Assembly: GCA_965246935.1 (NCBI GenBank)
Contig: CBDFGC010000006.1
Span: forward strand, 293,961-357,960
Direction: 5' to 3'
Length of the DNA: 64,000 bases
From: Chitinophagaceae bacterium
Lineage (GTDB): Bacteria > Bacteroidota > Bacteroidia > Chitinophagales > Chitinophagaceae
Part shown: piece after piece, positions 7,182-59,907 of the stretch
Numbering within the stretch: the stretch's first letter is position 1
Layout of the letters: each line of letters starts with the position of its first letter
Made by a program: the position numbers and the translations under genes
The notes under the pieces: generated by a model
Seen by the model: only the letters and a program-made list of their open reading frames with translations
Told to the model about the DNA's origin: nothing
The model's database searches: none

Positions 7182-7304
7182 TTTTTTCACCACAAAGGAA
7201 TATAAGGAGCACATAGGTTCACATAGAAATACAACACATTAGAAAGAATTGTTAGAAAAGAGTAAAGCTCCGTTATAAAATAAACAGTTGTCAGCGGAAG
7301 TATT

Positions 7305-7778
7305 ATGAACCCTTCACCAAATAAAAAGTATCCATATCAGGTTTGGGGATCAACTCTAATTTCTACTCCAATTGTAATTTCCTTAATGAAGCTTATTAAA
7401 AACTATTCTTTATTTAGTCCAGAAAGTTTAGGATCTGAATTTATATTTATACTATTCATACTTTTTATTAGTGTAATAACTTCCTTACCAGCACTTTTTC
7501 TGTATAGATTTTCTTTTGCAAGATTTTCTCACCTCTCTATTTCATTTGTCCGGGTTAAATCCATTCTGTCCTTTACAGCTATCTGCTCTACTATATTGAC
7601 ATTCATTTTAGTTGATAAGATACTCATTGAATTGTGGAGAAAAGGATTAAGTTCCATAGAAATTACAATTGCCTACCCGGTTATCTATTCAATAACAATA
7701 GCAGTAACAGGTTACTATTTTAAACTCACTGATAGTGAGGAATGTTCCACCCGCACAACTTTAAACTTTAAACTTTGA
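7305..7778 (+). CDS. Hypothetical small multi-pass membrane protein, AT-rich, inserted between the two carB halves
   Basis: 157-aa ORF, 4-5 hydrophobic helices, markedly lower GC than flanking carB; no recognisable family. Confidence 0.4.
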   Translation: MNPSPNKKYPYQVWGSTLISTPIVISLMKLIKNYSLFSPESLGSEFIFILFILFISVITSLPALFLYRFSFARFSHLSISFVRVKSILSFTAICSTILTFILVDKILIELWRKGLSSIEITIAYPVIYSITIAVTGYYFKLTDSEECSTRTTLNFKL

Positions 7779-7800
7779 ACCTGAAACGGTTTTCTGAACA

Positions 7801-8982
7801 ATGAACCATAACGAATCCATCCCCTCCAACCGTAAAAAAATAATTGTACTTGGCAGCGGCCCGAACCGCATTGGCCAGGGCATTGAGTTCGACTATTGCT
7901 GTGTGCACGGCCTGCTGGCCATTAAGGAATGTGGCTACGAAGCCATCATGGTCAATTGCAACCCGGAGACGGTAAGTACCGATTTCGACATTGCCGATAA
8001 ACTGTATTTCGAACCCGTTTTTTGGGAACACCTCTGGGAAATTATTGAGCATGAAAAACCCGAAGGCGTCATCGTTCAACTGGGCGGGCAAACGGCACTG
8101 AAATTAGCCAGGCGGCTTCATGCAAAAGGTATTCGCATTATGGGCACCAGCTACGATAATATGGACATTGCCGAAGACCGTGGCCGCTTTAGCGATAAGC
8201 TGAAAGCTTTGGGCATTCCTTTTCCCCGTTATGCGACTGCCTATAATACCGACGATGCCATAGAAGCCGCACGGGAAGTAGGCTACCCGGTGCTGGTGCG
8301 GCCCAGCTATGTATTGGGCGGCCAGCGTATGCGCATTGTGCTGAATGATGAGGAACTGGAGAGCGGCGTATTGAGTTTACTAAAGCATTTACCCGGCAAT
8401 AAAATCCTGATCGATCATTTCCTCGACCGCTGCCAGGAAGCAGAAATTGACGCCATTTTTGATGGCGATGATTTTCATGTAATGGGCGTAATGGAGCATA
8501 TTGAACCGGCCGGTATTCATAGTGGCGACAGTAATGCCGTATTGCCAGCTTTTAATCTTACCCCGTTACTGGTTACGACTATGGAACACTATGCCGAAAA
8601 AATTGCCCGTGCATTAGAAATCCGTGGCCTTATCAATATTCAGTTTGCTATAAAAGACAATACCGTATTTGTAATTGAAGCTAACCCACGTGCCAGCCGC
8701 ACTACCCCGTTTATTGCCAAAGCTTACCAGATCCCTTACCTGAACGTTGCTACCAAAGTAATGCTGGGCGAAGCAAAACTGAAAGACTTTACATTCGAGA
8801 AAAAGATGCAGGGCTTCGCCATTAAGGAGCCGGTTTTCAGTTTCGATAAATTTCCGGGTGTAAATAAGGAATTAGGCCCTGAAATGAAAAGCACAGGTGA
8901 AGCTATCCGCTTTATCAAAGATCTGCGGGACCCCTACTTCAGACAATTATATAAGGAGCGCAGTATGCACCTCAGTAAATAA
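7801..8982 (+). CDS. carB: Carbamoyl-phosphate synthase large subunit, C-terminal half (ATP-grasp 2), lacking MGS-like allosteric domain
   Basis: KIIVLGSGPNRIGQGIEFDYCCVHG, MVNCNPETVSTDFD, VLVRPSYVLGGQRM, NPRASRTTPFIAKA; own ATG start; ends just before where allosteric domain begins in E. coli CarB. Confidence 0.9.
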   Translation: MNHNESIPSNRKKIIVLGSGPNRIGQGIEFDYCCVHGLLAIKECGYEAIMVNCNPETVSTDFDIADKLYFEPVFWEHLWEIIEHEKPEGVIVQLGGQTALKLARRLHAKGIRIMGTSYDNMDIAEDRGRFSDKLKALGIPFPRYATAYNTDDAIEAAREVGYPVLVRPSYVLGGQRMRIVLNDEELESGVLSLLKHLPGNKILIDHFLDRCQEAEIDAIFDGDDFHVMGVMEHIEPAGIHSGDSNAVLPAFNLTPLLVTTMEHYAEKIARALEIRGLINIQFAIKDNTVFVIEANPRASRTTPFIAKAYQIPYLNVATKVMLGEAKLKDFTFEKKMQGFAIKEPVFSFDKFPGVNKELGPEMKSTGEAIRFIKDLRDPYFRQLYKERSMHLSK

Positions 8983-23577: not shown

Positions 23578-23614
23578 TACATTTTTAAAAGGTTAGGGGA
23601 TGCAAAGTAAGTAT

Positions 23615-23820
23615 AGAAGAAGTTATGAGAGATAAGTTATGAGAGATGAATTGTAAACGAATAGTGATTGTTGCAAATTATGTGTAGAAGAAGAGATGAG
23701 AGATGAGTTATGAGAGATAAGTTATAAAGGGACAGCGATTATTGCAAATTATCCGCAAAGAATACAATTCAGCAACCCATGTCTTATCTCTCATATCTTA
23801 TCTCTCATAACTCATCTCTT
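23615..23820. repeat. Intergenic nested repeat cluster between divergent GH3 and tig genes (gttatgagagatRa tandem copies and their inverted copies; 30-bp ttgcaaattat direct repeat)
   Basis: Forward copies 23622-23649 and 23693-23725, inverted copies 23782-23817 (cttatctctcata...), direct repeat 23661-23694 / 23732-23762. Confidence 0.7.
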
Positions 23821-25606: not shown

Positions 25607-26347
25607 ATGAATTTTGGAAAAGAATTTGAAAAATATGCGGTAAAGCACCGCGGCCTTAGCAGCAATACACTGCATGGCTATATGAACCATAGCTTACCGC
25701 AGGCCGCTGCTTTTATTCAGCCTGCAGGTATTGTTACTGATGTTACCAATCTAACCCCTAATATTATTGAAGAGCGGCCTATGAATGTAGCCGTTATGGA
25801 TGTGTATAGCCGGTTAATGATGGACCGCATCATATTTTTGGGTTATCCTATTTCCGACGAAGTAGCCAACATTGTAACCGCACAACTACTGTTTTTGGAC
25901 AGCACCGACCGGGTACGGGATATTCAGATGTACATCAACTGTCCTGGGGGCAGCGTGTATGCAGGCCTGGGAATGTACGATACCATGCAGTTTGTAACGC
26001 CGGATATTGCAACCATTTGTACAGGTATGGCTGCCAGTATGGGTTCGGTGCTAATGGCAGCGGGTGCTAAAAACAAGCGTTCGGCCTTAAAACACAGCCG
26101 CATTATGATACACCAGCCAAGTGGCGGTGCTATGGGGCAGGCCAGCGATATCGAGATCACTGTAAATGAAGTGCGTAAGCTAAAAAAAGAACTGTATGAT
26201 ATTCTGGCACAGCATACCGGCCAAACACCTGAGCAGATACATGAGGATAGTGACCGTGACAAATGGCTGACAGCTGAAGAAGCGAAAAGCTACGGCCTGG
26301 TAGACGAAGTACTGATCACCAATCCTCGGAAGAAAAAAGATTTTTAA
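25607..26347 (+). CDS. clpP: ATP-dependent Clp protease proteolytic subunit (ClpP1) with Bacteroidota-type N-terminal extension
   Basis: Catalytic triad context GMAASMGSVL (Ser), IMIHQPSGG (His), DRD (Asp); 246 aa. Confidence 0.9.
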   Translation: MNFGKEFEKYAVKHRGLSSNTLHGYMNHSLPQAAAFIQPAGIVTDVTNLTPNIIEERPMNVAVMDVYSRLMMDRIIFLGYPISDEVANIVTAQLLFLDSTDRVRDIQMYINCPGGSVYAGLGMYDTMQFVTPDIATICTGMAASMGSVLMAAGAKNKRSALKHSRIMIHQPSGGAMGQASDIEITVNEVRKLKKELYDILAQHTGQTPEQIHEDSDRDKWLTAEEAKSYGLVDEVLITNPRKKKDF

Positions 26348-26382
26348 AGAATGATACTCACCATTTACCTTAACGAAGTTGT

Positions 26383-26682
26383 ATGCAGACTAATTCAGTA
26401 TTAGCAACGGTTGTGGAAGAAGTGAAGGAAATTTCATTTGATGAAATGAAAAAACGGTATCCGGATGAATGGGTGGTAGTGGGAAACCCGGTGGTAGGAG
26501 AAAGAAATCTGAAGGTACTCTCAGGCATTCCTTTGGTGCATGGTAGAGATAAGAAGATTGTATGTTGGGAAGGCAGGAAAGCTCTTGACAAAGAACAGAT
26601 AGGGAGTTATAAAGTTATCTACACTGGCGATAGTGTTTTTCCTAAGCGGTTTATGACAGGCATATTCCACAGAATACAATGA
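26383..26682 (+). CDS. Hypothetical 99-aa protein translationally coupled (ATGA overlap) to downstream retropepsin-like protease
   Basis: Stop TGA overlaps start ATG of next ORF at 26679; no recognisable motif. Confidence 0.45.
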   Translation: MQTNSVLATVVEEVKEISFDEMKKRYPDEWVVVGNPVVGERNLKVLSGIPLVHGRDKKIVCWEGRKALDKEQIGSYKVIYTGDSVFPKRFMTGIFHRIQ

Positions 26683-27071
26683 AAATTACACCTTATACGG
26701 TTCCTAAAGGCATTAATGCTATCATTATTGAAGGATGGGCAAATGAAGAAGGCTTTCTAAATCTATTATTGGACACCGGCGCTTCACATACTTCTCTTGA
26801 TTCTAATGCTCTTGCTATAAGCAGCATTCAGCTTTCACAACCTGTAGATAAGGTGCTTGTAGAAACAGCCAATGGTGTTATATCTACTAACGTTTATTTG
26901 ATGGATTCGTTAGAATCATTAGGTATTTACAAATCTGCCTTCCCGGTACAAATTATAGATTTTATTGAACGGGGCATCACTTCAGAATACGATGGAATAA
27001 TAGGCCTTGATTTTTTAGCCGGTACGCATTTTTGCATTGACACCGTGCAGCAGCAAATCACTATTCAATAA
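26679..27071 (+). CDS. Retropepsin-like (clan AA) aspartic protease, single-domain
   Basis: Catalytic LLLDTGASHTSLD (DTGA) and C-terminal flap/dimer motif GIIGLDFL typical of retropepsins/DDI1-like proteases; 130 aa. Confidence 0.7.
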   Translation: MKITPYTVPKGINAIIIEGWANEEGFLNLLLDTGASHTSLDSNALAISSIQLSQPVDKVLVETANGVISTNVYLMDSLESLGIYKSAFPVQIIDFIERGITSEYDGIIGLDFLAGTHFCIDTVQQQITIQ

Positions 27072-27086
27072 TTACAAACAATATAT

Positions 27087-27707
27087 ATGTTTTATAACAA
27101 CATAAAAAGCGAAGAAGAGGAACCGGCAGAGGTTCCTGACCTGCCGGAGAACCCGATGGAGAAAATGGTATCGGGATGGCAGTTTGACAAAAAGTTTATT
27201 GAGCAACGCAAAGTATTTCTTTGGGGCGCTGTGGATGATAAAACGGCAAAGGACATTTCCAGCCGCCTGCTGTATTTAGATGCCATTGACCCTGGTAAAG
27301 AAATTACTTTTTACATTAACAGCCCAGGTGGCATTATTACCAGCGGCATGGTTATTTACGATACCATGAAGTTGATAACCAGCCCTGTTGCTACGGTGTG
27401 CATGGGCCTGGCCGCCAGCATGGGTAGTATATTGCTCAGTGGTGGCGAAAAAGGCAAACGCTATATCTACCCGCATGGCGAAGTAATGATACACCAGCCA
27501 AGCGGTGGCGCACGGGGTACCAGTGCCGATCTGGAGATTATGGCGGTACAAATAAAAAAAGCTAAAGAAATAGGCGCCAAAATCTTAGCAGACAACACCG
27601 GCCAGACCATTGAAAAAATCTACAAAGATTTTAACCGGGACTACTGGATGGATGCAAATGAAAGTATTGCCTACGGTATTGTAGATAAGGTGGTTGATAA
27701 GCTATAA
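27087..27707 (+). CDS. clpP: Second ClpP paralog (ClpP2), catalytic triad intact
   Basis: GLAASMGSILL, VMIHQPSGG, RDYWMD; 206 aa, lacks N-terminal extension of ClpP1. Confidence 0.88.
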   Translation: MFYNNIKSEEEEPAEVPDLPENPMEKMVSGWQFDKKFIEQRKVFLWGAVDDKTAKDISSRLLYLDAIDPGKEITFYINSPGGIITSGMVIYDTMKLITSPVATVCMGLAASMGSILLSGGEKGKRYIYPHGEVMIHQPSGGARGTSADLEIMAVQIKKAKEIGAKILADNTGQTIEKIYKDFNRDYWMDANESIAYGIVDKVVDKL

Positions 27708-32553: not shown

Positions 32554-34719
32554 ATGCAGGGGAAACAATTACGAAAATTAGAAGCCGAGCTGTGGCGGGC
32601 TGCCGACCAGCTTCGGGCCAACAGTAAACTAACTGCTTCAGAATATTCAATGCCTGTGCTGGGGCTTATCTTTTTACGGCATGCTTTCAACCGGTTTAAG
32701 AAAGTAAAGGTTGATATTGAAAAGGATTTGCCTACGCACCCGCAACGTGGTAAACGGGCGTTGACCAAGAAAGACTTTGAAGAAAAAAACAGTTTGTTTT
32801 TGCCCGAAACGGCACAGTTCGATTACCTGGTGGCCCTACCGGAAAATACCGATATTGGTGAGGCAATTGATGCCGCCATGAAGGCTATTGAAGAAGCGTA
32901 CGATAACCTGAAAGGCGTACTGCCAAAGAACTTTTCCATTTTTAGCAAAGACCTGCTGCGGGAACTGCTTCGCATTTTTAATAAGGAAGTATTGCAAAAG
33001 GCCGAAGGTGATTTGTTTGGAAAGATTTACGAATACTTCCTCAACAAATTTGCCATGACCGGCGCACAGGAAGGCGGTGAATTTTTTACGCCCATGAGCC
33101 TGGTGCAAACCATTGTAAATGTAATAGAGCCCGACCATGGCATTGTGCTGGACCCCGCCTGCGGCAGTGCCGGTATGTTTGTGCAAACCGGCTATTTCAT
33201 TGAGAGCGAAGGCTTGCGGCCCGCTGAAAAAGTAACCTTTTACGGACAGGAAAAAGCCGAACAAAATACCCGGCTGGCCAAAATGAATATGGCCGTGCAT
33301 GGGCTGGAAGGCAATATACAGGAAGGCAATACTTTTTACGAAGACAAGCACAACCTGGCCGGCAGTGCCGACTTTGTAATGGCTAATCCGCCATTTAATG
33401 TGGATGGCGTGGACAAAGGCAAAGATGCTGTAAAGAAAGATCCCCGCCTGATGCTGGATGGCAAAGTAGCCCTGCCTAAAAATGACAATGCTAACTATCT
33501 GTGGATTCAGTATTTCTACAATTACCTGAAGCCAACCGGAAGGGCCGGGTTTGTAATGGCCAGCAGCGCCTCCGATGCGGGGCATAGTGAACGGGACATT
33601 CGGGAAAAACTGGTATGCACCGGTGCGGTAGATGTAATGATGGCGGTGGGCAATAACTTTTTCTATACCCGTAGCCTTCCCTGCACGTTGTGGTTTTATG
33701 ATAGGGGAAAGGAAAGTCTGAACCAGGATTTACAGGATGATAGAATGAGCAGGATAACGATAGCAAATAAGCAAAATCCTGGCTATCAGGCCATTCATGA
33801 AAATCCTGGTTCAGACAATTTTCGCAGCAAAGACACCGTGCTGATGCTGGATGCCCGCAAAATATACCGGAAGGTAACCAGCAAGGTAAACGATTTTAGC
33901 CCGGAGCAATTGCAAAACCTGATTTGCATTGTAGGCCTGTACCGGGGCGAAAATGAAAAATTTGCTACTACTGTAAAAAACTATTTACAGAAAGCATCCG
34001 ATGCTGCTTTTGCTGCGGTAGATGTTGTGGAACAATGGCAGCAAACAGTACAGCGCATTATTGGCAATGAGAAGATAAAAACCATTAGCGAAACACTATA
34101 CGAAAGCTTAAACAACCTGGAAGGCTACGAACCTGTGCAGCAGTTGCAAAAAGATTTTATAGATGCTGTAAAGAATAAGGCAACCACCGCAGGTTACGGT
34201 TCTACCTCCTCCGCTTTTGGGGGAGGTTGGGTGGGAGCCACCCTCCGTAAGCCATTGGATAAATTAGTAAAAATCCTGCTGGATACCGTTGCTGCTGCCC
34301 AGCGGAATGATGGCCTGAATAAGCTGCCGGCCTGGAAGGCGCTGAACCTGAAAGAAGAACTGGATACCCTGCGCAACCTGCAACAGCAACTAAGCGGAAA
34401 TGTAGAGGAAGAAGAGCCTGGCCTGCTGCATGAGATAGAGTATTATTACAAGCAAGCACACTGGCTTACCAGCCGTTTCCCGGATGGCGTGTATGCCGAT
34501 GTGGAAGGCTTGTGCAAAGTGGTAACGCAAGCCGAAATAGCAACCAAAGACTGGAGCCTGAGCCCCGGCCGTTATGTGGGCGTAGATGCCGCAACGGATG
34601 ACGGCATTGATTACGAAGAACGCCTGGCCGAAATACACATTGAGTTGGAAAGCCTGAACGAAGAAGCCATTACTTTAGCAAATTTGATAAGCGAAAATTA
34701 TAAGGAGTTGGTGGTATGA
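32554..34719 (+). CDS. hsdM: Type I restriction-modification system methyltransferase subunit HsdM (long form, 721 aa)
   Basis: HsdM N-domain, AdoMet motif LDPACGSAGMF, catalytic NPPF (MANPPFNV), C-terminal DWSLSPGRYVG; overlaps hsdS start by 4 nt. Confidence 0.88.
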   Translation: MQGKQLRKLEAELWRAADQLRANSKLTASEYSMPVLGLIFLRHAFNRFKKVKVDIEKDLPTHPQRGKRALTKKDFEEKNSLFLPETAQFDYLVALPENTDIGEAIDAAMKAIEEAYDNLKGVLPKNFSIFSKDLLRELLRIFNKEVLQKAEGDLFGKIYEYFLNKFAMTGAQEGGEFFTPMSLVQTIVNVIEPDHGIVLDPACGSAGMFVQTGYFIESEGLRPAEKVTFYGQEKAEQNTRLAKMNMAVHGLEGNIQEGNTFYEDKHNLAGSADFVMANPPFNVDGVDKGKDAVKKDPRLMLDGKVALPKNDNANYLWIQYFYNYLKPTGRAGFVMASSASDAGHSERDIREKLVCTGAVDVMMAVGNNFFYTRSLPCTLWFYDRGKESLNQDLQDDRMSRITIANKQNPGYQAIHENPGSDNFRSKDTVLMLDARKIYRKVTSKVNDFSPEQLQNLICIVGLYRGENEKFATTVKNYLQKASDAAFAAVDVVEQWQQTVQRIIGNEKIKTISETLYESLNNLEGYEPVQQLQKDFIDAVKNKATTAGYGSTSSAFGGGWVGATLRKPLDKLVKILLDTVAAAQRNDGLNKLPAWKALNLKEELDTLRNLQQQLSGNVEEEEPGLLHEIEYYYKQAHWLTSRFPDGVYADVEGLCKVVTQAEIATKDWSLSPGRYVGVDAATDDGIDYEERLAEIHIELESLNEEAITLANLISENYKELVV

Positions 34720-35912
34720 AATCCAAGGTTTATAAAATAGATGACATTAAAGCTCAAGGAAAGTACAATTTAGTGGGAGGGCCATTTGGGTCAGACTTAG
34801 TATCAAAAGATTATGTCGAGGCTGGAGTTCCAGTTCTCCGTGGTACAAACCTTCCTTTTGACAAAAAGTTTTCTCATGATGATTTGGTATTTGTTTCAAA
34901 TGAAAAGGCTAAAAAATTGAAAGCAAATATTGCGTTTCCTAGGGATATAGTTTTTACACAAAGAGGAACGCTTGGTCAGATCGGCATAATACCAACGGGA
35001 TTCTATGACGAATATGTTGTTTCCCAAAGTCAAATGAAGTTGACAGTTAATGAACAGTTGGCTGTACCTGAATTTGTTTATTATTATTTTAGTTCACAGA
35101 AAGGTAGAAATAGTATAAAGGCACATTCAATTACTTCAGGTGTACCTCATATCAATTTGACCATTTTAAAGAATTTGAAAATATTACTTCCTTTAATTCC
35201 AGTACAACAAAAAATCGTTTCAATTTTATCGGCTTATGATGATTTGATAGAAAATAACTTGAAGCGGATAAAACTGCTGGAGGAGTCCATTAATCTTAAT
35301 TACAATTTATTAAACTCTAAAGAAGATAAATATTGGAGTATTATTAAATTAAATTCTTTGATAGACATTATATCTGGTTATCCTTTTAAGAGCAATTATT
35401 ATAATGAAAATGGCAGGTATAAGATTGTTACGATCAAGAATGTTCAGGATGGATTTTTTATTTCTGAAGCAACAGATAAGATTGATGACATTCCTATAAA
35501 TATGAGTAAAAAAATATTTCTGAATACAGGGGATATAATAATGTCATTAACTGGAAATGTTGGAAGAGTATGTCTTGTCTTTGGTGATCATTATGTTTTA
35601 AATCAACGGGTGATAAAGCTTTCGGTAAAATTGGATACTGATAAAGGATTCACTTATGCGTTGTTACGGGATAAAAAAATGCAAACTACTTTAGAAAATT
35701 TATCAAGTGGTACAGCACAACAAAATTTAAGTCCCGTTAAAATGGGAGAGTTGTTTATTAAGTATCCAACTGCTATCCTGAGAAAAGAATTTAATCAAAT
35801 AACCCTCCCAATGATTGATTTAATTTGTAAGATCAATCAACAAAACACCAAACTCCGTGAAGCCCGTGATATTTTATTGCCAAGGCTAATGAGTGGGGAA
35901 ATAGAAGTATGA
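34716..35912 (+). CDS. hsdS: Type I R-M specificity subunit HsdS (two TRDs)
   Basis: Two target-recognition domains separated by conserved helical spacer; AT-rich as typical for TRDs; coupled to hsdM. Confidence 0.8.
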   Translation: MKSKVYKIDDIKAQGKYNLVGGPFGSDLVSKDYVEAGVPVLRGTNLPFDKKFSHDDLVFVSNEKAKKLKANIAFPRDIVFTQRGTLGQIGIIPTGFYDEYVVSQSQMKLTVNEQLAVPEFVYYYFSSQKGRNSIKAHSITSGVPHINLTILKNLKILLPLIPVQQKIVSILSAYDDLIENNLKRIKLLEESINLNYNLLNSKEDKYWSIIKLNSLIDIISGYPFKSNYYNENGRYKIVTIKNVQDGFFISEATDKIDDIPINMSKKIFLNTGDIIMSLTGNVGRVCLVFGDHYVLNQRVIKLSVKLDTDKGFTYALLRDKKMQTTLENLSSGTAQQNLSPVKMGELFIKYPTAILRKEFNQITLPMIDLICKINQQNTKLREARDILLPRLMSGEIEV

Positions 35913-35920
35913 TGTATTAT

Positions 35921-36023
35921 GTGCCGTAGGTACAACCTGTTTGTAGAAAATCAATTGCCATCCAACGTATTGTGCCACGTAGTGGCTACCTGTTAAATCC
36001 TGTGTACACGCTACAACTAACCC
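35921..36023. repeat. REP-like palindromic elements (variant gccgtaggtacaacctgtttgtag + canonical gccacgtagtggctacctgtt)
   Basis: Core palindrome GCCACGTAGTGGC; same family as arrays flanking the RAYT gene. Confidence 0.7.
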
Positions 36024-36062: not shown

Positions 36063-36476
36063 ATGTTTGACGAAACCAACAAATACAAAACAAACGACCA
36101 TTTCTTTTACATGCCGGGCAGCAGCTTGCCGGAAGTAAGCAAAGCGGTTCCTGCACTACCCGGTGTGTATTATATTATCCGGCTTGCCCGTGGCCATGTA
36201 GATCTTGTTTTTATTGGTAAATCCGGCGCAGGTGCCCAGCTAGGCAATTTAAAAGAAACAATTAGCCGGGGCCTTATCAGCGGCATATCAACCAAAGCCT
36301 CCCAAAGCTTCATACATCGGAAAATGATTGCCGAAAAAATAGATGGGCTTGACATTTACTGGTTTGTAACCATAGATGGCAAAAACAACGATTTACCCGA
36401 ATATGCCGAAGCATTATTAAAACAACGGGTGTACAATACGTATGGCAGGCTACCGCCGTGGAATGCAGAAGTGTAG
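36063..36476 (+). CDS. Hypothetical protein with possible GIY-YIG-like motif
   Basis: PGVYYIIR...LVFIGKSGAG loosely fits GIY-(x10)-YIG spacing; weak. Confidence 0.35.
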   Translation: MFDETNKYKTNDHFFYMPGSSLPEVSKAVPALPGVYYIIRLARGHVDLVFIGKSGAGAQLGNLKETISRGLISGISTKASQSFIHRKMIAEKIDGLDIYWFVTIDGKNNDLPEYAEALLKQRVYNTYGRLPPWNAEV

Positions 36477-36656
36477 ACATGCTATCCTATCTGTCGTTCG
36501 TTCCTAACCGTTTGTAAACAAATGATTACCATCCCCATTCTACAAGCAGGTTGTACCTACGGCACAAAAAACCCATGCACCCATAAAATCTATACAATCT
36601 GCCTCAGTGTAACACTCTGTTTTCAATAAAATAACATCTATCACTCAACACCATTT

Positions 36657-36850
36657 GCCCCGGCGGCTATCTATTTGTAGCATCAGCCGCAGTAATCTCC
36701 TTACGTAATCTGCCACGCAGTGGCTACCTGTTTGTAGCAGAAAACAATGTGATGAATCCACATCATCTGCCACGTAGTGGCTACCTGTTTGTAGCATCAG
36801 CCGTATTAATCTTCTTACGTAATCTGCCACGTAGTGGCTACCTGTTTGTA
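36657..36850 (+). repeat. REP array (4 units, + orientation) immediately upstream of RAYT gene
   Basis: ctgccacgtagtggctacctgtttgtagca x4 with two alternating ~27-bp linkers. Confidence 0.85.
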
Positions 36851-37006
36851 AATAGGCAAATTCCCTTCAATATTTTTTTGCACCTTCGGGATTATCCGTT
36901 TGTATTAAAATGAAAAATGGAATGAGATTTATTTCCTGTCCGGAAAAGATGATATTTTCATACATCGTATGACGTTGCTACCCATTTAACCCATTAAAAA
37001 ATATCA

Positions 37007-37474
37007 ATGGCTAACACTTATACGCAACTTCACGTCCATTTTGTATTCGCTGTAAAATATAGGGCAGCAATAATCGAAGATGGCTGGCGTGAAGAATTGC
37101 ATAAATACATTACCGGTACCGTTCAAAACAATGACCACAAAATGCTGTGTATCAATTCTGTTTCCGATCACCTGCACCTGTTTATTGGTTTCGATACCAA
37201 ACAATCTATTATGGAATTAATGCGGCAGGTGAAAGGCGATAGCGCTGAGTGGGTCAATGACAAACGGTTTACCAAAAGAAAATTTCAATGGCAGGATGGA
37301 TATGGAGCTTTCAGCAATAGCCATTCGCAGATTGATGCAGTTGTAAAATACATTATCCGCCAAAAAGAACATCACCAAAAGAAAACTTTTAGAGAGGAAT
37401 ACCTGAAGATGCTGAAAGATTATGGCGTTGAATATGATGAAAAATATGTTTTTCATGATTTGTTAGATGGATGA
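37007..37474 (+). CDS. IS200/IS605-family HUH Y1 transposase, REP-associated tyrosine transposase (RAYT)-like
   Basis: HVHFVFAVKYR (first His/His region), HuH motif DHLHLFI, catalytic Tyr in VKYIIRQKEHH (cf. IS200 YIRNQ..HH); 155 aa; flanked by inverted REP arrays. Confidence 0.8.
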   Translation: MANTYTQLHVHFVFAVKYRAAIIEDGWREELHKYITGTVQNNDHKMLCINSVSDHLHLFIGFDTKQSIMELMRQVKGDSAEWVNDKRFTKRKFQWQDGYGAFSNSHSQIDAVVKYIIRQKEHHQKKTFREEYLKMLKDYGVEYDEKYVFHDLLDG

Positions 37475-37500: not shown

Positions 37501-38150
37501 GCTACAAACAGGTAGCCACTACGTGGCAGATTACCTAAGAAGATCAATACGGCTGATGCTACAAACAGGTAGCCCCGCCGGGGCATAATGGTATGGATTC
37601 ATCACATTGTTTTCTGCTACAAACAGATAGCCACTACATGGCAGATTACGTAAGAAGATTAATACGGCTGATGCTACAAACAGGTAGCCACTACGTGGCA
37701 TAATGGTGTGGATTCATCACATTGTTTTCTGCTACAAACAGATAGCCACTACATGGCATAATGGTGTGGATTCATCACATTGTTTTCTGCTACAAACAGG
37801 TAGCCACTACGTGGCAGATTACCTAAGAAGATCAATACGGCTGATGCTACAAACAGATAGCCACTACGTGGCATAATGGTATGGATTCATCACATTGTTT
37901 TCTGCTACAAACAGGTAGCCCCGCCGGGGCAGATTACGGAAGAAGATTAATACGGCTGATGCTACAAACAGGTAGCCACTACGTGGCAGATGATGTAGAT
38001 TCATCACATTTTTTTTGCTACAAACAGGTAGCCCCGCCGGGGCAGATTACGTAAGAAGATCAATGCAGATGATGCTACCACAAACAGGTAGCCACTACAT
38101 GGCAGATGATGGAAGACGATCAATGCAGGTGATGCCTACCTGTTTGTAAC
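37501..38150 (-). repeat. REP tandem array (~11-12 units, 57-58-bp period, minus orientation) downstream of RAYT; CRISPR-like in appearance
   Basis: gctacaaacaggtagccactacgtggcag repeated with two alternating linker types (attacctaagaagatcaatacggctgat / ataatggtatggattcatcacattgttttct); variants with ccccgccgggg core. Confidence 0.85.
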
Positions 38151-38270
38151 AACTAAATAAGGTAATTAATATCCCAGGCATTTGTATATTTACCTATAAG
38201 CTGTTTCGTTTTTTAACCTGTTCAATGTCAAATAGCGATAAAGTAAGATCGTATTAGCCAAATGTGCTGT

Positions 38271-38340
38271 AAGCACTACCTGTTTGTAGAAAATGACAGC
38301 AATTAAATTGTTTTATGCCACGTAGTGGCTACCTGTTTAC
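38271..38340. repeat. REP half-site plus full REP copy
   Basis: cactacctgtttgtag ... gccacgtagtggctacctgttta. Confidence 0.6.
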
Positions 38341-38392: not shown

Positions 38393-38683
38393 ATGCTAAA
38401 AACATGTGAAGTGAAATTGTATCAGGAATTATTGGATGAAACACCGGAAGAAGTTGAAACCTTCATTCGGCTATATGCTGATTTGCAATTAAAGATTAGC
38501 CGCATTGTGGAACAGAAAGGTATTACCAAAGAAACATTACTACAAGTCGAAGCCATGCAAACGCAGGAAACGAGGAAATGGCTAAAGGGTGAACATGATT
38601 TCTCTTTATGCTGTTTATCCAAACTGTCAGTTGAGTTAGAAGAGCCGTTGTTGGAAGTGCCATCTTTAAAAACTGAGCGGTAG
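38393..38683 (+). CDS. Hypothetical 96-aa protein upstream of hsdR
   Basis: ORF only. Confidence 0.3.
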   Translation: MLKTCEVKLYQELLDETPEEVETFIRLYADLQLKISRIVEQKGITKETLLQVEAMQTQETRKWLKGEHDFSLCCLSKLSVELEEPLLEVPSLKTER

Positions 38684-38724: not shown

Positions 38725-41700
38725 ATGCCCTACGAATACTCCGAAGACAAACTGGTTGAGCAAACTGCTATGGATTTGTTCTTCCACCGGCTGGGCTGGG
38801 ATAGAAATTATGCTTTCAATAAAGAAACCTTTGGCGAAGGCAGTTCACTGGGCCGGCATAGCAAATCGGAGGTGGTACTGAAGCCCGTTTTTATGGAACG
38901 GCTACAGGCTTTCAATCCCGGCCTGCCGCAAAAAGCTTACGACGAAGCCTGGGCAAAACTGACAGAAGAAAGCGCCGTAAAATCAGGGGATGAAATCAAT
39001 TTTGAAAAATACCAGTTACTCAGAGACGGCATTCCAGTTGACTTCATTAACCAAAAAGGGGAACCTGTAAAAAATAAAATACTGCGGGTGTTCGATTTTG
39101 AGCAGCCCGACAACAACAAGTTTGTAGCCGTTCAGCAACTATGGATACAAGGGCGGAGCAACCGGGAGCGGCGGCCTGATATTATTGGTTTTGTGAATGG
39201 GATTCCCCTGCTGTTTATTGAACTGAAAGCCGCCCATCGCAAACTGGAAAATGCCTACAACGAAAATTTTTCCGATTATAAAGATGTAATTCCATCGCTT
39301 TTTTATTACAACGCATTTGTGATCCTGAGCAATGGCATCGAAAGCCGCATTGGCAGCGTTACCGGCAGGTACCAGCACTTCCACGAATGGAAACGTATTA
39401 CCGAGGAAGACAACGGCATTGTAGCGTTGGACCGCATCATTGTAGGCGTTTGCGAAAAGCACCGCTTTTTAGACCTGTTCGAAAATTTTATCCTGTTCGA
39501 TACTTCGCTGGGGAAAGTAATGAAACTCATTGCCCGCAACCACCAGTTTATCGGTGTCAATAAAGCCATCGAAAATATCCGGCAAAAAAAGGATATGTAT
39601 GCACATGGCAGCATCAGCCGGGAGGAAAAGCAGCGCCTGGGTGTATTCTGGCACACGCAGGGCAGCGGCAAGAGTTACTCCATGGTTTTCTTTTGCCAGA
39701 AAATTCACCGCACATTTAAGGGCAGCCATACCTTTTTTAATTGTTACCGACCGCAACGAACTGGATACGCAGATATATGGTACATTCAGCGGTGTTGGTG
39801 CCGTGCCGCAGATAAAAGCCGGTGCCAAGGAATCACTAAAAGCGGGCAGCGGCAAGCATTTAAAAGAGTTACTCAGTTCGGAGCATCGCTACCTGTTTAC
39901 CCTCATTCATAAGTTCAACTTTGCAGAAGAGATTACGAGGCGGGATAATATCATTGTTATTTCCGACGAAGCCCACCGCACCCAGGGCGGCAGCCTGGCC
40001 ATGAATCTGCGAAACGCTTTGCCCAATGCTTCCTTCATCGGCTTTACAGGTACGCCATTGTTTAAAGACGACGAATTAACGAGACGCATTTTCGGGGATT
40101 ACGTAAGCCGGTACGATTTCAAACGCAGTGTGGATGATGGTGCTACCGTACCGCTGTATTACGAAAACAGGGGCGAATATTTAGGATTAAAGAATCCGGC
40201 TATCAATCAACAGATACGGGCCATCATTGATGCTGAAACAGAAGACCTGGATAGTGACCAGCGCAGCAGCATCGAAAAATTGTTTGCCAGAGAATACCCT
40301 ATTCTTACCTCCCGAAAGCGACTTGATACTATTGCCAAAGATGTGGTATGGCATTTTTGCAACCGGGGGTATAAAGGCAAAGCCATGTTTGTGGCGCTGG
40401 ATAAACTAACAGCCGTTAAAATGTACGACGGGATTATCCAACACTGGAATAATTACATAGCCCAAACAGAAAAAGAAATAGCCAAAGGCAAATATGGCGA
40501 CCAGGAACTACTGGCAAAAAGCCGGGAACTGGTATGGATAAAAGCAACGGAAATATGTGTGGTAGTAAGCAGCGAGCAAAATGAAATACAGAAGTTCCGC
40601 AAATGGGATCTGGACATTGAGCCACACCGGGAAAAGATGAACACCCAAGATTTGGAAACCCGGTTTAAAGATGAAGCTGATCCCTTCCGGCTGGTAATTG
40701 TTTGTGCCATGTGGATCACCGGTTTTGATGTGCCTACGCTTTCTACCTTATACCTTGATAAGCCGCTGAAATCCCACACGCTGATGCAGGCCATTGCAAG
40801 GGCCAACCGCATCAGCGAAGGCAAAAATAACGGGCTGATTGTGGACTATATTGAAACCTATACTGCCCTGCTGGATGCACTGGCCATTTACGGTTCCAAC
40901 GGGGAGGACGGTGATGGTACAACGCCTGAACTACCGGTAAAGCCGAAGGAAGAACTGATCCGGCAACTGGAAGAAGCGATTACGGCAACAGAACATTTTT
41001 TACAGGATGAAGTAAGTTTCAATCTAACGGAACTGGTAAATGCCACTGCACTGCAAAAGCTGGCTGCACTGGAAAAAGGCATCAATGCCATATATACCAA
41101 CGACGAAACCAAACGTAAGTTTCAAATATTGGGAAGAGCAGTTTTTAAGAAATACAAAGCCCTGCAGCCGGATAAAGTGCTAAACCAATACGCTCCCTAA
41201 GAAGAATGCAATCGATGTAATCTACACCGCAATTGAAGGCAATATCGAGAGTGCTGATGTATCGGAGATCATGAAAAAGATTCAGACAGTTGTGGATGAA
41301 TCTATTGAAACGATGGCATCCGAGCAACCATCACAGGATGAGGGCAAAATCATTGACCTGAGCGGATTGAATTTTGAGTTGCTTGAAAAGTACTTCTCAA
41401 AGCTGCAACACAAAAACATAGCCGTTCAGTCGCTGAAGGATATGGTGGAAAAAAGATTGAAAAAGATGCTTGAACGCAACCCACTGACTATTGATTATTA
41501 CAAGCGTTACCAGGAAATTATTGATGCCTATAATCTTGGTAAAGATGAAGCGGTGATTAAGGAAACTTTCCGCAAACTGATAGAACTGATAAATGATTAT
41601 TCAGCCGAAGAAGCAGATACAAAAAGAGAAGGTCTGACGGATGAGCAAAAAGCGATATTCGATATTTTACGGCATGGCAAAGAACTGGCAGAAAAAGAAA

Positions 41701-41951
41701 AGAATGCCATCAAAGAAATTGCTATCGATTTGTTGGCAGCGTTGAAAAAAGAGAAACTAAAAGTGGAGCAATGGTCTGATAAATCGGCTACAGCGGCGGC
41801 CGTTTTTAAAACAGTAAACGACACCTTGTTTGAAGCATTGCCCTATCCTACTTACCATACTAATGATATTGACCTGAAAACAAACCTGGTGTACAACCAT
41901 CTGAAAAAGCAATACTATGGTGGCGGGCAAAGTATTTATGGCTCGTATTGA
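38725..41951 (+). pseudogene. hsdR: Type I restriction enzyme R subunit HsdR, disrupted by two single-base homopolymer frameshifts (near 39733-39738 and 41195-41197)
   Basis: HsdR_N nuclease domain (IIGFVNGIPLLFIELK), helicase motif I GSGKSYSMVFF, motif Ia-II FLIVTDRNELD / VISDEAHRTQ in +1 frame, C-terminal DUF3387-like KKNAIDVIY...VVDESIE in third frame; three ORFs 38725-39912, 39530-41200, 41271-41951 jointly ~1075 aa. Confidence 0.8.
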
Positions 41952-42667: not shown

Positions 42668-42816
42668 TGAAAAAGAGTTTTACAACGGAATGACATTATT
42701 GAAAGGCAATTAGATAAAGACATGGTAAAAAATAATTTCAATATCAATTTATTCGACGACAGTTGCTCCAAACCTCCCTTTAGGGCAATGTCCTTAATTT
42801 AAGAATTGTAGTAGCT

Positions 42817-43408
42817 ATGCGCCGTAGGTGCAACCTGTTTGTAGCAAACAGACATCATTGACGTTGGTGGCTGCCACGTAGTGGCTACCTGATCAGAGAA
42901 GGGGGTAGCCACTACGTGGCAATGATTCCCTTTTTCGTTTTGTTTTCTACAAACAGAAAGCCCCGATGGGGCTTATCTTAATGACATTGGCTTAAAGGGG
43001 GCTAACGGTTCACCTTCACATTTGATGCCTACTCCAGGATTTACGCATTTGTCTATTGTTTTGGTGGCACAAATCAAGTTCCCCCTTTAGAGTCTGTCCC
43101 GGACCCCAGCCGGTTGGTTAGGGGCAACCAACCCCGGATAAAAACATCCTGTAACTGAAGAAGTTAGACAACTTTACTTAGTAAAGTGGTCAAAATAACT
43201 TGTACAATAGAAGCGTGATATTACCCCAGCCTTAGCAAACAAAGAGGCAAAGGGAATCATTGCCACGTAGTGGCTACCCCTTCTCTGATCAGGTAGCCAC
43301 TACGTGGCATGCACCAACATCAATGATTTCTGTCTTCTACAAACAGGTTGCACCTACGGCGCATAACTGATACATTAATCCTTATCTTAATGACATTGCC
43401 CTAAAGGG
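42817..43408. repeat. Composite REP-containing inverted-repeat structure: ~120-bp arms (42817-42960 vs 43243-43364) each containing a REP inverted pair, flanking a ~280-bp centre with further hairpins; flanked by ~40-bp direct repeats at 42711-42750 and 43570-43609
   Basis: Reverse complement of 42817-42960 matches 43245-43364 almost base-for-base; cttatcttaatgacattgSc.taaagggg direct copies at 42971-43000 and 43381-43408; module ccccctttagagtctgtcccggacccc shared with MITE at 13106. Confidence 0.7.
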
Positions 43409-43531
43409 GAACTCGTTTTTACCTGAAAAATTAGTGGCAACTATGAGTATTTTGAAGTTCCTATGACAGTTTGAAAGTGTCCAAAAGCCCCCTTTAGGAG
43501 GGTTTGGGGGCAACCAGGTCAGATTGATGAA

Positions 43532-43843
43532 ATGTTCAGGTTATTTCGACAGCTTTACTTAGATAAAGACATGGTAAAAAATAATATTAATTTCAATTTC
43601 AGAAACATGTTTCAACATTTCTATTATTTTGATTTTGCTTACTTCATCAACAATTCAACAGACGAAAAAGGATTGAAAGTTGCATTTGCCAAAGGCACAC
43701 TCATTTATCTGAAAAGGAATGATGATCAGTTCTTACATGCATTTAAAGACATCGCTTTTAGTCGTGGATACATGAATATAGTAGCCGAACAAATCATAAG
43801 TGCAAATCAAGATTCGAGCACCCATTATTCAACTGGCCGATAA
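43532..43843 (+). CDS. Hypothetical protein; N-terminal coding region duplicated at 42722-42800
   Basis: 103-aa ORF; MVKNNINFNF.. start duplicated upstream as truncated copy. Confidence 0.3.
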   Translation: MFRLFRQLYLDKDMVKNNINFNFRNMFQHFYYFDFAYFINNSTDEKGLKVAFAKGTLIYLKRNDDQFLHAFKDIAFSRGYMNIVAEQIISANQDSSTHYSTGR

Positions 43844-51253: not shown

Positions 51254-52537
51254 AAATAAATAAGTTGAACAAAAAGCAGTATAAATTTGGGATAAAAACC
51301 AGAGATGATAAGCCCCTATAATCATCAAATAGAAGAGCTAATGCGTCTTCATTATAATCGGCTGTCAGAAAGGGAAAAGCGTTGGTATGCGGCTGTTGAA
51401 GCATCTAAATTAGGCTGGGGCGGTACGACTTACATCAGCCACCTGTTACAACTCAGCCGTACTACAGTCACGGTTGCCAAAAAGGAAATGCAGGCTGGCT
51501 TACTACAACCCCAAGTGCCAACAGCAGGCAGGCAGCGAAAAACAGGCGGCGGGCGAAAAAAAAAGTACAGAAAAGCTGGCTGATGCCACCTTACAGTTGA
51601 TCATTTTACTTCAAAGCCTCAAAGCCGGTAGCCCCACCGATGCAACTGTTTACTGGATAAGCCTCAGGCCCCGGCAAGTAGCACAACTCTTTGAAGCACA
51701 GCATCAGTTTAAAATAAGCCATAGTTTTGTAAAGCGGGTACTCAAAGAACAGGGGTATGGCTATCGAAAACAGTCCAAACAATTAGCCACTGGCAGCTAC
51801 AGCCGTCGCAATGAGCAGTTTGAAATCATTTGTGCGATGGTATTGGTAATGAGCCTGCAAAGCCCTGTGCTCAGCATGGATTGCAAGAAAAAAGAGCGGT
51901 TAGGTAATTTATACAGAGGGGGCAAATGCTACAGCACCAAAGCTATGAAAGTATATGACCACGATTATGAGCATTTATCAGAAGGCAAAGTCATTCCTCA
52001 TGGAATTTATGATATGCAGGCCAATAAAGGCTATATCTCTATCGGGGGCAGCAGCGAAACAGCAGATTTTGTAATAGACAACCTGCTATGGTGGTGGTGG
52101 GAACATGGTATTCATCGCTACCCGGATGCAAAGAACATCCTGTTGTTCTGCGATGCAGGAGGTGCCAATAGCTATCGCCATCATGCCTTTAAGTACCAGC
52201 TACAGCTCTTTGCCAAGGAAACAGGCTTATCTGTTATTGTATGTCACTATCCGCCTTACTGTTCTAAATGGAACCCGATAGAACATCGCCTGTTCTGTCA
52301 GGTGCATAAAGCGATGGAAGGTGTTGTTTTTACCGATTATCAAACTGTTCAACAATGTATCGGGCAGACCGCTACTCAAACAGGCTTAACAGTGGCGGTA
52401 AGGCTCAACCTTCAGCAATACACAACAGGCAGGAAGATAGATAAAGAACTTATTGATCAAAACCGAATAACCTTTCATCCCCTCATTCCGGAACTCAACT
52501 ATAGAATCTATCCATGATTTGTTCAACTTATTTATTT
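51254..52537 (+). mobile_element. ISAzo13-family insertion sequence (~1.28 kb) with 20-bp perfect terminal inverted repeats
   Basis: TIR aaataaataagttgaacaaa at 51254-51273 and its reverse complement at 52518-52537; encodes DDE transposase with DCKKKERLGN motif. Confidence 0.75.
51305..52517 (+). CDS. ISAzo13-family DDE transposase, two overlapping frames joined by frameshift in A9 tract (51556-51564)
   Basis: N-terminal HTH ORF ends ...TGGGRKKKYRKAG*; downstream frame continues ...EKKSTEKLADATLQLI; LSMDCKKKERLGNLYRGG, DAGGANS, CHYPPYCSKWNPIEHRLF typical of family. Confidence 0.7.
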
Positions 52538-59564: not shown

Positions 59565-59671
59565 GGTTGTGCGTAATTTTATAGACACCTGATGCTGTTT
59601 AGTATTTTAACACTTGTTGGAAAATAGATAAAAAATATTAAAGTATCGATTTTGTGTGCTGCAGGCACATT

Positions 59672-59907
59672 CTGTTTGTAGGCATATGGGTGATTAGGTG
59701 TTTTATGCCACGTAGTGGCTATCTGTTTAGCCACCGTGTACCTGACTTGACAGCGTTTGTTTAAAAGCTAAACAACTTCCTGATGTATTATTTCAAACAA
59801 CACTTGTTCCTTTACTTTAAAGTGATCAAACAGGTAGCCACTACGTGGCATGATGGCGTTTTTAAAGCCTTCATTGTTACAAACAGCTTGTACCTACAAC
59901 ACAATAG
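59672..59907. repeat. REP cluster: inverted REP pair (59706-59729 +, 59827-59850 -) plus degenerate copies
   Basis: gccacgtagtggctatctgtttag ... caaacaggtagccactacgtggca ... acaaacagcttgtacctacaac. Confidence 0.7.

Follow-up and report, generated by a model that had tools for sequence, protein, structure and literature searches.

A CRISPR-like repeat array in a Chitinophagaceae genome is probably one arm of a REPtron built around an IS200-like Y1 transposase gene

A 64 000 nt stretch of the genome of a Chitinophagaceae bacterium (GenBank assembly GCA_965246935.1, contig CBDFGC010000006.1, positions 293 961 to 357 960 of the forward strand; hereafter the window) carries at positions 37501–38107 a regular array of short palindromic repeats that closely resembles a CRISPR array. 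The locus raises the question of what kind of array this is and how it came to be. With a probability of about 0.9, it is an array of repetitive extragenic palindromes (REPs) belonging to a REPtron and not a CRISPR array. The fuller explanation, in which the array is one arm of a REPtron that consists of a single-copy, domesticated IS200-like Y1 transposase gene of subclass 1.2 and its inverted cognate REPs, is considered likely. Four minus-strand units, the transposase gene and 11 plus-strand units follow one another within the window. The parts of this element are as follows.

36653–36852, minus strand: upstream REP array of four units, the outermost degenerate, inverted with respect to the downstream array
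36959–36983, minus strand: possible decayed short REP (GGGTAG on the bottom strand and a displaced 5 bp hairpin), a weak case recognised by reading against 14 related loci
37007–37474, plus strand: Y1/HUH tyrosine transposase gene (155 aa), similar to REP-associated tyrosine transposases (RAYTs) and placed by its motifs in TnpAY1 subclass 1.2
37501–38107, plus strand: downstream REP array of 11 head-to-tail full REPs with linkers A and B between them, each REP matching covariance model R1 with 37–48 bits
38120–38150, minus strand: inverted degenerate REP that closes the downstream array (27.1 bits; E = 6e-8, a rough value, as are all E-values of this home-made model)

The downstream array contains 11 direct copies of the 28 nt unit GCTACAAACAGGTAGCCACTACGTGGCA, with 0–4 mismatches apiece, which start at 37501, 37558, 37616, 37673, 37731, 37789, 37846, 37904, 37961, 38017 and 38077 and are spaced 56–60 nt from start to start. 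The unit reads (G)CTAC-AAACAG-GTAG, then a hairpin with a 5 bp stem and a 3 nt loop, then CA; ATAG stands in place of GTAG in three units. The ten internal linkers are 28–32 nt long and fall into two classes, with identities of 90–100 % inside a class and 43–59 % across classes. Class A (GATTACCTAAGAAGATCAATACGGCTGAT) is found at units 1, 3, 6 and 8 and, in diverged form, at unit 10; class B (TAATGGTATGGATTCATCACATTGTTTTCT) is found at units 2, 4, 5 and 7 and, likewise diverged, at unit 9. Tandem Repeats Finder reported higher-order periods of 115 nt (93 % matches), 173 nt and 288 nt. The initial annotation of this region, made from the sequence alone, had described a REP-type palindromic array with a higher-order unit of about 115 bp and only two classes of spacer, and both statements agree with these data. 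Its description of the linkers as strictly alternating does not hold; their order is A B A B B A B A B′ A′ followed by a divergent tail, with B–B neighbours at 37701–37788 and the final three linkers divergent or hybrid. Neither linker occurs in the window outside the two arrays, and the chance expectation for either was 0 in 100 shuffles. A 3 nt insertion directly 3′ of CTAC (GCTAC-CAC-AAACAG, 38073–38087) is the sole indel that breaks the register of the array. In the bacterial interspersed mosaic elements (BIMEs) of Escherichia coli, successive REPs alternate in orientation, whereas here the 11 downstream units are all on the plus strand and the four upstream units all on the minus strand. 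The earlier label ‘BIME-like’ is thus loose; the presence of two linker types is the only resemblance, to BIME-2.

A variant stem loop, GCCCC-GCC-GGGGC in place of GCCAC-TAC-GTGGC, is found in three units (37558, 37904 and 38017). The two palindromes differ at four positions, representing one compensated base pair and two loop bases, and fold as DNA into the same hairpin shape (−5.2 kcal/mol for the variant vs −4.5 kcal/mol for the standard form). The degenerate copy at 36653–36681 has the same GCC loop and 3′ arm as the variant and forms a fourth case. Since the variant is unchanged in its three copies, it is one propagated REP subtype and not the outcome of several independent compensations. 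The proposal of a compensatory alternative palindrome that keeps the hairpin agrees with the shared fold.

With partly palindromic 28 nt repeats, spacers of 28–32 nt (about 29 nt) and 11 units, the array matches the defaults of CRISPR finders. A CRISPR array was nevertheless ruled out, and even an orphan or degenerate one has a negligible probability. Only two spacer sequences are present, each repeated, and neither has an exact match in a viral contig collection. No Cas domain was detected by Pfam in any open reading frame (ORF) of at least 130 aa in the window, and no match to Rfam, CRISPR-DR included, was obtained at gathering thresholds. The repeat is moreover dispersed in intergenic DNA outside the arrays, singly and as doublets and in both orientations (at 35917, 36539, 38260, 42815–43366 and 59652–59906), it is found in many other genomes, and an inverted copy of the array lies across a transposase gene. 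The earlier view of the array as a CRISPR mimic is therefore borne out; no unique spacers are present among the linkers, and no cas genes were found by Pfam among ORFs of at least 130 aa in the window.

The upstream array carries linkers A, B-like and A again, as expected from the earlier remark that both linkers recur there reverse-complemented, and forms with the downstream array inverted repeats of 83–110 nt that are 88–98 % complementary. That remark did not connect the two arrays with the Y1 transposase gene, whose location between them (37007–37474) explains the pair.

The transposase, an intact and conserved enzyme, matches Pfam Y1_Tnp (E = 7.6e-27) and the NCBIfam IS200/IS605 model NF033573 (73.9 bits, cutoff 55). 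Its closest solved relatives by PDB sequence search are ISDra2, IS608 and Sulfolobus TnpA, and the same search gave no match to E. coli TnpA_REP (4ER8) at E ≤ 0.01. With the AlphaFold model (predicted local distance difference test score of 78) as query, IS608 and ISDra2 TnpA were the top fold matches (E of about 2e-7); E. coli TnpA_REP (4er8) came 30th (E = 2e-4), yet had the best root-mean-square deviation. Residues D54-H55-x-H57, W95-Q96, Y115, Q119 and H122-H123 are invariant in 22 aligned proteins, i.e. that of the window and 21 homologues. In the window protein the HuH motif is DHLH (D54-H55-L56-H57), WQ is present, and the catalytic Y115 lies inside YIIRQKEHH, where class 2 TnpA_REP proteins have the Y---NP motif. 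One copy of the gene is present in the window. Homologues carry the names Mucilaginibacter, Runella, Niabella and Chitinophagaceae, and are about 70 % identical over three classes of Bacteroidota, a conservation like that of housekeeping genes. Most contigs with close homologues are just 1–3 kb or so in length, an observation compatible with the interruption of short-read assemblies by the REP arrays beside the gene.

In the scheme of Quentin et al. (2018; PMC6006769), Y1 transposases form class 1 (IS200-like), class 2 (TnpA_REP) and class 3. Subclass 1.2 is described there by DH[IV]H, WQ and YIKNQKEHH (Y---Q--HH); its proteins average 148 aa, have a C-terminal tail specific to them, are low in copy number and occur in Bacteroidetes and Cyanobacteria, and the REP column of the table reads ‘No’. 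The window transposase fits this subclass by motifs, rather than by the hidden Markov models or tree of that study: it shares DHxH, WQ and Y---Q--HH, a length of about 150 aa, a conserved C-terminal tail of about 30 aa and a host among the Bacteroidetes and, to judge by the one copy in the window and the synteny kept among close relatives, apparently also low copy number and behaviour unlike that of an insertion sequence (IS). It differs in having clear cognate REPs in a REPtron layout, of which none were listed. The REP search in that study required fully paired basal stems of 7–20 nt, so that REPs with 5 bp stems would escape it, and the manually found REPs in its Table S1 have no subclass 1.2 entry.

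Conservation of the repeat was assessed in 74 distinct REPs from protein-selected loci and the window, which were picked solely by the 5′ module CTACAAACAGGTAG with at most one mismatch and on which the covariance model was built. Twelve more copies, with 4–5 nt loops or a 1 nt deletion, were excluded to keep the alignment ungapped; most of these also pair. The stem is paired in 93.2 % of cells, vs 77.3 % in shuffles, and cells changed on both sides of the stem number 45, vs 6.9. None of 500 shuffles reached the observed covariation, and controls in which the 3′ arm was slid gave 28–46 % pairing. Stem pairs 16/26 and 18/24 occur as CG, UA, GC and AU. The first stem pair uses the last G of GTAG, which is at least 90 % conserved. 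The stem of the REP is thus kept by compensatory changes between copies, and the structural constraint that had been proposed for the hairpin is confirmed in this larger set of independent copies. A second helix between CTAC and GTAG, which pair in 83.5 % of cells, was also considered; it was dropped because no covariation could be demonstrated, and the two motifs are treated as conserved sequence.

The 5′ region was also assessed in REPs for which it had not been a condition of selection, by finding REPs through GTAG and the stem and taking the second REP outward from the gene. There the module reads C (80 %), T (91 %), A (86 %), C (83 %), AAA (74–94 %), two variable bases and G (91 %). A T-rich run precedes the CTAC module, and the base after the stem is A in 97–99 % of copies. 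Two forms are apparent. The full REP (F) comprises a T-rich run, CTAC-AAA-NN-G-GTAG, a 5 bp stem, a 3–4 nt loop and CA, and the short REP (s) comprises GGGTAG, a hairpin and CA.

Linkage of these repeats to the transposase was examined in 80 metagenomic loci that were selected by the protein alone, near-duplicates of the same organisms among them, with REPs called by a strict detector. Of 75 loci examined over the 200 nt upstream of the start codon, 56 have a minus-strand REP nearest to the gene and none has a plus-strand one there; of 74 examined over the 200 nt downstream of the stop codon, 47 have a plus-strand REP nearest to the gene and none a minus-strand one. Median gaps between REP and gene are 45 nt upstream and 9 nt downstream, and -F -s, gene, +s +F is the layout seen most frequently. 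REPs number 2.1 per kb inside 1 kb of the gene vs 0.044 per kb farther out (shuffled sequences gave 25 matches in 420 kb). The covariance model found 375 matches in the 80 loci, whose flanks are visibly stereotyped. In the complete genome of Mucilaginibacter ginsenosidivorax the gene is likewise followed by +s +F and more REPs over 1.1 kb.

Direct arrays of at least four REPs are present in 11 other loci, the longest with 14 copies. Their periods are mostly 47–65 nt, with gaps of up to about 120 nt in some runs, and several have a two-unit higher-order period, e.g. 80+51 or 50+65 nt. Because direct REP arrays recur in this way, the F-A-F-B pattern of the window is a local example of a general habit. 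Neighbouring genes are shared in 4 of 4 pairs of loci with transposases at least 95 % identical, in 12 of 32 pairs at 85–95 % and in 3 of 370 pairs below 85 %, a pattern more readily reconciled with a gene that stays in place and is inherited vertically than with an IS that hops.

When one genome per species was searched for GCTACAAACAGGTAGCC-N7-GGCA, 49 loci were found in Mucilaginibacter, Runella, Chitinophagaceae, Flavipsychrobacter, Ferruginibacter and Foetidibacter, from three Bacteroidota classes. The seven free bases show CC..GG, GC..GC, TC..GA, CT..AG and AC..GT variants. Five of the 49 loci include a transposase homologue, and several metagenome-assembled genomes (MAGs) have multiple REP loci each. 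Gene-less loci are often quartets of the same layout, facing either way: -F -s +s +F is also found in L012, L023 and L028, and the opposite in L024, L027, L030, L046 and L047. The sole record from outside Bacteroidota, L015 (CAIKYO010000383.1), is a 2.1 kb contig labelled ‘uncultured Burkholderiales’ with one exact REP match; the label is probably a binning error.

In two loci of one lineage, L055 (at about 4830–4950) and L074 (4813–4851), the last 39 nt or so of the transposase ORF are repeated downstream together with the s and F REPs; the duplicated 3′ end was picked up in L074 by a search for gene remnants. Either a partial duplication in tandem took place or a second copy of the gene has left this remnant, and the case hints that loss of the gene by deletion can give rise to REP quartets. 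In the search of REP quartets, transposase-gene remnants were found in this lineage only, and the case is not generalised.

In the window itself, the covariance model places about 17 REP copies in five intergenic clusters beyond the REPtron.

35917–35994, minus strand: doublet of a full and a short REP (-F -s; 40.6 and 26 bits), just past the hsdS stop codon
36489–36569: pair after the small ORF orf137, i.e. a weak minus-strand REP (10.3 bits) and a plus-strand full REP (30.4 bits)
38260–38338, minus strand: doublet of a full and a short REP (-F -s; 40.7 and 31.3 bits), upstream of the small ORF orf96
42815–42976: REPIN-like quartet -F -s +s +F, in the REPtron layout with 12 nt where the gene would be
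43258–43366: cluster -s +s +F, the inverted partner of the cluster at 42815–42976
59652–59906: intergenic REPIN-like quartet, -F -s and +s +F separated by a spacer of about 95 nt

The quartets are called REPIN-like because they have the REPtron layout with a short spacer replacing the gene. Two of the clusters lie within a composite palindrome at 42710–43599, with arms at 42776–42949 and 43233–43408 that are 88–91 % complementary around a 283 nt centre. It is flanked by a 41 nt direct repeat (42710–42750 and 43559–43599, 93 % identical), and a second repeat, CTTATCTTAATGACATTGsCyTAAAGGGG, is found at 42972 and 43381 and inverted at 42776. The whole is possibly a nested mobile element that made a long target duplication.

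As an element, the locus is of a known kind. Like the REPtron (Nunvar 2010; Ton-Hoang 2012, PMC3333891), it has a Y1/HUH gene between inverted hairpin repeats, GTAG at the 5′ foot of the stem, further copies of its repeats in intergenic DNA and a gene that is apparently not IS-like. It differs in its enzyme, which belongs to class 1 (IS200-like, Y---Q--HH) and not to class 2 TnpA_REP (Y---NP), in its 5 bp stems and extra conserved CTAC-AAA module, in head-to-tail doublets and arrays in place of BIMEs of alternating orientation, and in a REP 5′ module that is conserved across classes of a phylum and not species-specific. The GTAG-REP superfamily of Di Nocera et al. (2013; PMC3733652) was reported from Proteobacteria, Cyanobacteria, Chloroflexi and the Planctomycetes–Verrucomicrobia–Chlamydiae (PVC) group, and not from Bacteroidetes, with stems mostly of 6–13 bp and with head-to-tail dimers ‘absent or under-represented’. 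Shared with that superfamily are GTAG at one end of the stem loop, compensatory stem variants that define subfamilies, and clusters made of dimers tandemly reiterated with flanking DNA; here, however, head-to-tail order is the rule, stems are 5 bp and the host is a member of the Bacteroidota. The quartets at 42815–42976 and 59652–59906 share with REPINs (Bertels & Rainey 2011) the form of dispersed palindromes of inverted REPs with a short spacer, and differ in that each arm is a two-hairpin doublet (s and F) and in that both inward and outward quartets occur.

New here are REPs in subclass 1.2 and in Bacteroidota, where they were previously undescribed. Full-text literature searches found no later description of this system, which is treated neither in the RepRanger 2025 paper nor in the Chryseobacterium RayT paper, and Nunvar 2010 does not mention Bacteroidetes taxa. 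The novelty is tempered by Bertels et al. (2017; PMC5581495), whose ‘RAYT-like IS200 Group 3’ has no duplicates, is not on plasmids and has abundant flanking 16-mers; it may be the same lineage.

A route by which such an array could form is suggested by related enzymes. TnpA of IS608 and ISDra2 acts on single-stranded DNA and recognises its cleavage tetranucleotide via a guide at the 5′ foot of a hairpin. The repeats described here similarly have a hairpin with a 4 nt guide at its 5′ foot and a complementary tetranucleotide nearby; they differ in that the ends are inverted, with one guide (GTAG) and one site (CTAC) on both sides, and in that the gene does not lie between a left end and a right end on one strand. 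For E. coli TnpA_REP, GTAG and the hairpin are both required, and cleavage falls between C and T, also within CTAC, the complement of GTAG (PMC3333891). By analogy with the guide pairing of IS608 and ISDra2 and with the cutting of E. coli TnpA_REP in CTAC, the window enzyme would bind GTAG and the hairpin on single-stranded DNA, and would cut and rejoin at CTAC, which exactly complements the GTAG ‘guide’ and lies 6 nt to its 5′ side. Each full REP would then be both a binding site and a valid target, so that excised units could re-insert beside existing ones. Strand transfer between neighbouring CTAC sites is an alternative route, and either would give head-to-tail arrays of fixed period.

In the REPtron reading, the ancestral layout is -F -s, gene, +s +F. 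At this locus the F unit has multiplied in place, in the form of an F-A-F-B doublet of about 115 bp, and has reached 11 copies downstream and four upstream; the same REPs are dispersed in the window, and probably over the genome, as doublets and REPIN-like palindromic quartets. Later unequal recombination would have produced the block duplications of 115, 173 and 288 nt and the B–B adjacency. The 3 nt insertion 3′ of CTAC fits imprecise joining and is a small hint from a single anecdote. Enzyme-catalysed growth of the array at CTAC, as opposed to purely recombinational growth, is put forward tentatively, at somewhat below even odds. More doubtful is the wider proposition that subclass 1.2 Y1 transposases, seen until now as orphans near to IS200 and lacking REPs, serve a REP system that spans the phylum Bacteroidota and in which each repeat has its own CTAC target complementary to its GTAG guide.

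Several observations weigh against this account of the locus. The gene-proximal short REPs are decayed in this window; the candidate at 36959–36983 occupies the site where related loci have such a REP, and the covariance model gives no match to it. Single hairpins are weak (−3.6 to −5.2 kcal/mol, with z-scores of merely −1 to −2), and because their thermodynamic significance is marginal the structural argument rests on covariation. Between CTAC and GTAG no covariation is seen, both motifs being conserved and used for selection. Owing to the near-duplicates among them, counts in the 80 loci are not fully independent. Under the strict detector, 19 of 75 upstream and 27 of 74 downstream flanks have no REP. 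Beyond 1 kb from the gene, REP density in most related loci is near the shuffle background, and strong dispersal may be specific to certain lineages, this one included. Cleavage at CTAC is a prediction drawn from analogy, and growth of the array can be explained by slippage or unequal crossing-over alone.

This last point has its own merits as an explanation. If the REPs are cognate to the transposase and the array has grown solely by slippage or unequal homologous recombination, the enzyme having no catalytic role in it, then the 115, 173 and 288 nt periods and the B–B adjacency are typical block duplications, the restriction of the linkers to this locus within the window is as expected, and linkers common to both arms suggest gene conversion between the arms. 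Such an origin is quite possible, if not favoured, given that head-to-tail arrays, mostly with periods of 47–65 nt and with unrelated linkers, are found independently in at least 11 other loci and preferentially adjoin the gene; the 3 nt insertion at 38073–38087, again as a single anecdote, also speaks for the enzyme. Recombinational and enzymatic growth are not mutually exclusive.

Two further explanations are both unlikely. One is that the locus is an ordinary autonomous IS200/IS605 insertion sequence whose left- and right-end hairpins were locally duplicated. Its enzyme passes the NCBIfam IS200/IS605 equivalog model and has IS608 and ISDra2 TnpA as its closest solved structures, the doubled ORF end and s and F REPs of L055 and L074 hint at past duplication of a unit, and the REP quartets resemble gene-deleted derivatives. 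The flanking hairpins are, however, inverted wherever they were detected, whereas the ends of IS200/IS605 elements are direct on one active strand. Moreover, Y---Q--HH marks subclass 1.2, which was reported to be low-copy and without IS properties (PMC6006769), a single copy is present in the window, neighbouring genes are kept among close relatives, and the roughly 70 % identity across three classes is of a housekeeping kind. The other, equally improbable, is that the array works mainly at the level of RNA, by terminating transcription, stabilising mRNA or insulating the downstream hsdR operon from the transposase gene. The REPs are intergenic, on the transcribed strand and between genes of one type I restriction-modification (R-M) operon, such roles are known for REPs in E. 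coli (literature cited in PMC3733652), and a few terminator-like matches are present on the minus strand. However, the hairpins are short and weak and lack T-runs after them on the plus strand, REPs occur in both orientations, and RNA hairpins do not explain the orientation rule relative to the gene or the conserved CTACAAA module, which is not part of a hairpin. The scan behind these matches, for sigma-70 promoters and terminators, was uninformative and does not cover Bacteroidota promoters.

According to ORF and Pfam annotation, the whole element lies inside a type I R-M operon, in which hsdM (32554–34719) and hsdS (34716–35912) are followed by orf137, the element, orf96 and hsdR (from 38725).

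36063–36476: orf137, small ORF of unknown function, which with the REPtron and orf96 parts hsdR from hsdM and hsdS
38393–38683: orf96, small ORF of unknown function

The hsdR gene is present as three ORFs (38725–39912, 39530–41200 and 41271–41951), which hold successive parts of the HSDR_N, SWI2_SNF2, T1R_D3 and T1RH-like_C domains; the split probably reflects a pseudogene or sequencing frameshifts. Elsewhere in the window, a separate mobile element is represented by a DDE transposase of the ISAZ013 family (51474–52517; Pfam E = 9e-89). Two ORFs resembling the large chain of carbamoyl-phosphate synthase (5508–7181 and 7801–8982) have between them a 157 aa ORF (7305–7778) with no Pfam match, and the gene at 5508–8982 is either split or interrupted. 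Two ClpP paralogues (25607–27707) lie upstream of clpX with an ORF similar to retroviral-type aspartyl proteases (26679–27071) between them. The intergenic DNA upstream of the trigger factor gene contains AT-rich tandem repeats (23601–23819) whose periods are 71 and 14 nt (unit ATGAGAGATAAGTT).

In practical terms, arrays of this family are expected to be called as CRISPR by repeat finders in genomes and MAGs of Bacteroidota, and they break short-read assemblies. The locus ties a subclass that was listed without REPs to a clear and conserved REP family, and extends GTAG-REPs to Bacteroidota. It bears on how REPs spread and cluster and on the origin of REP/RAYT systems from IS200/IS605 elements, for which an IS200-like enzyme with GTAG and CTAC at a fixed distance offers a simple test case. 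If the self-targeting CTAC/GTAG design is true, insertion next to existing units would give rise to head-to-tail, CRISPR-like arrays, and the system would stand either for a stage resembling IS200 or for a second, independent route in the domestication that led to REP/RAYT systems.

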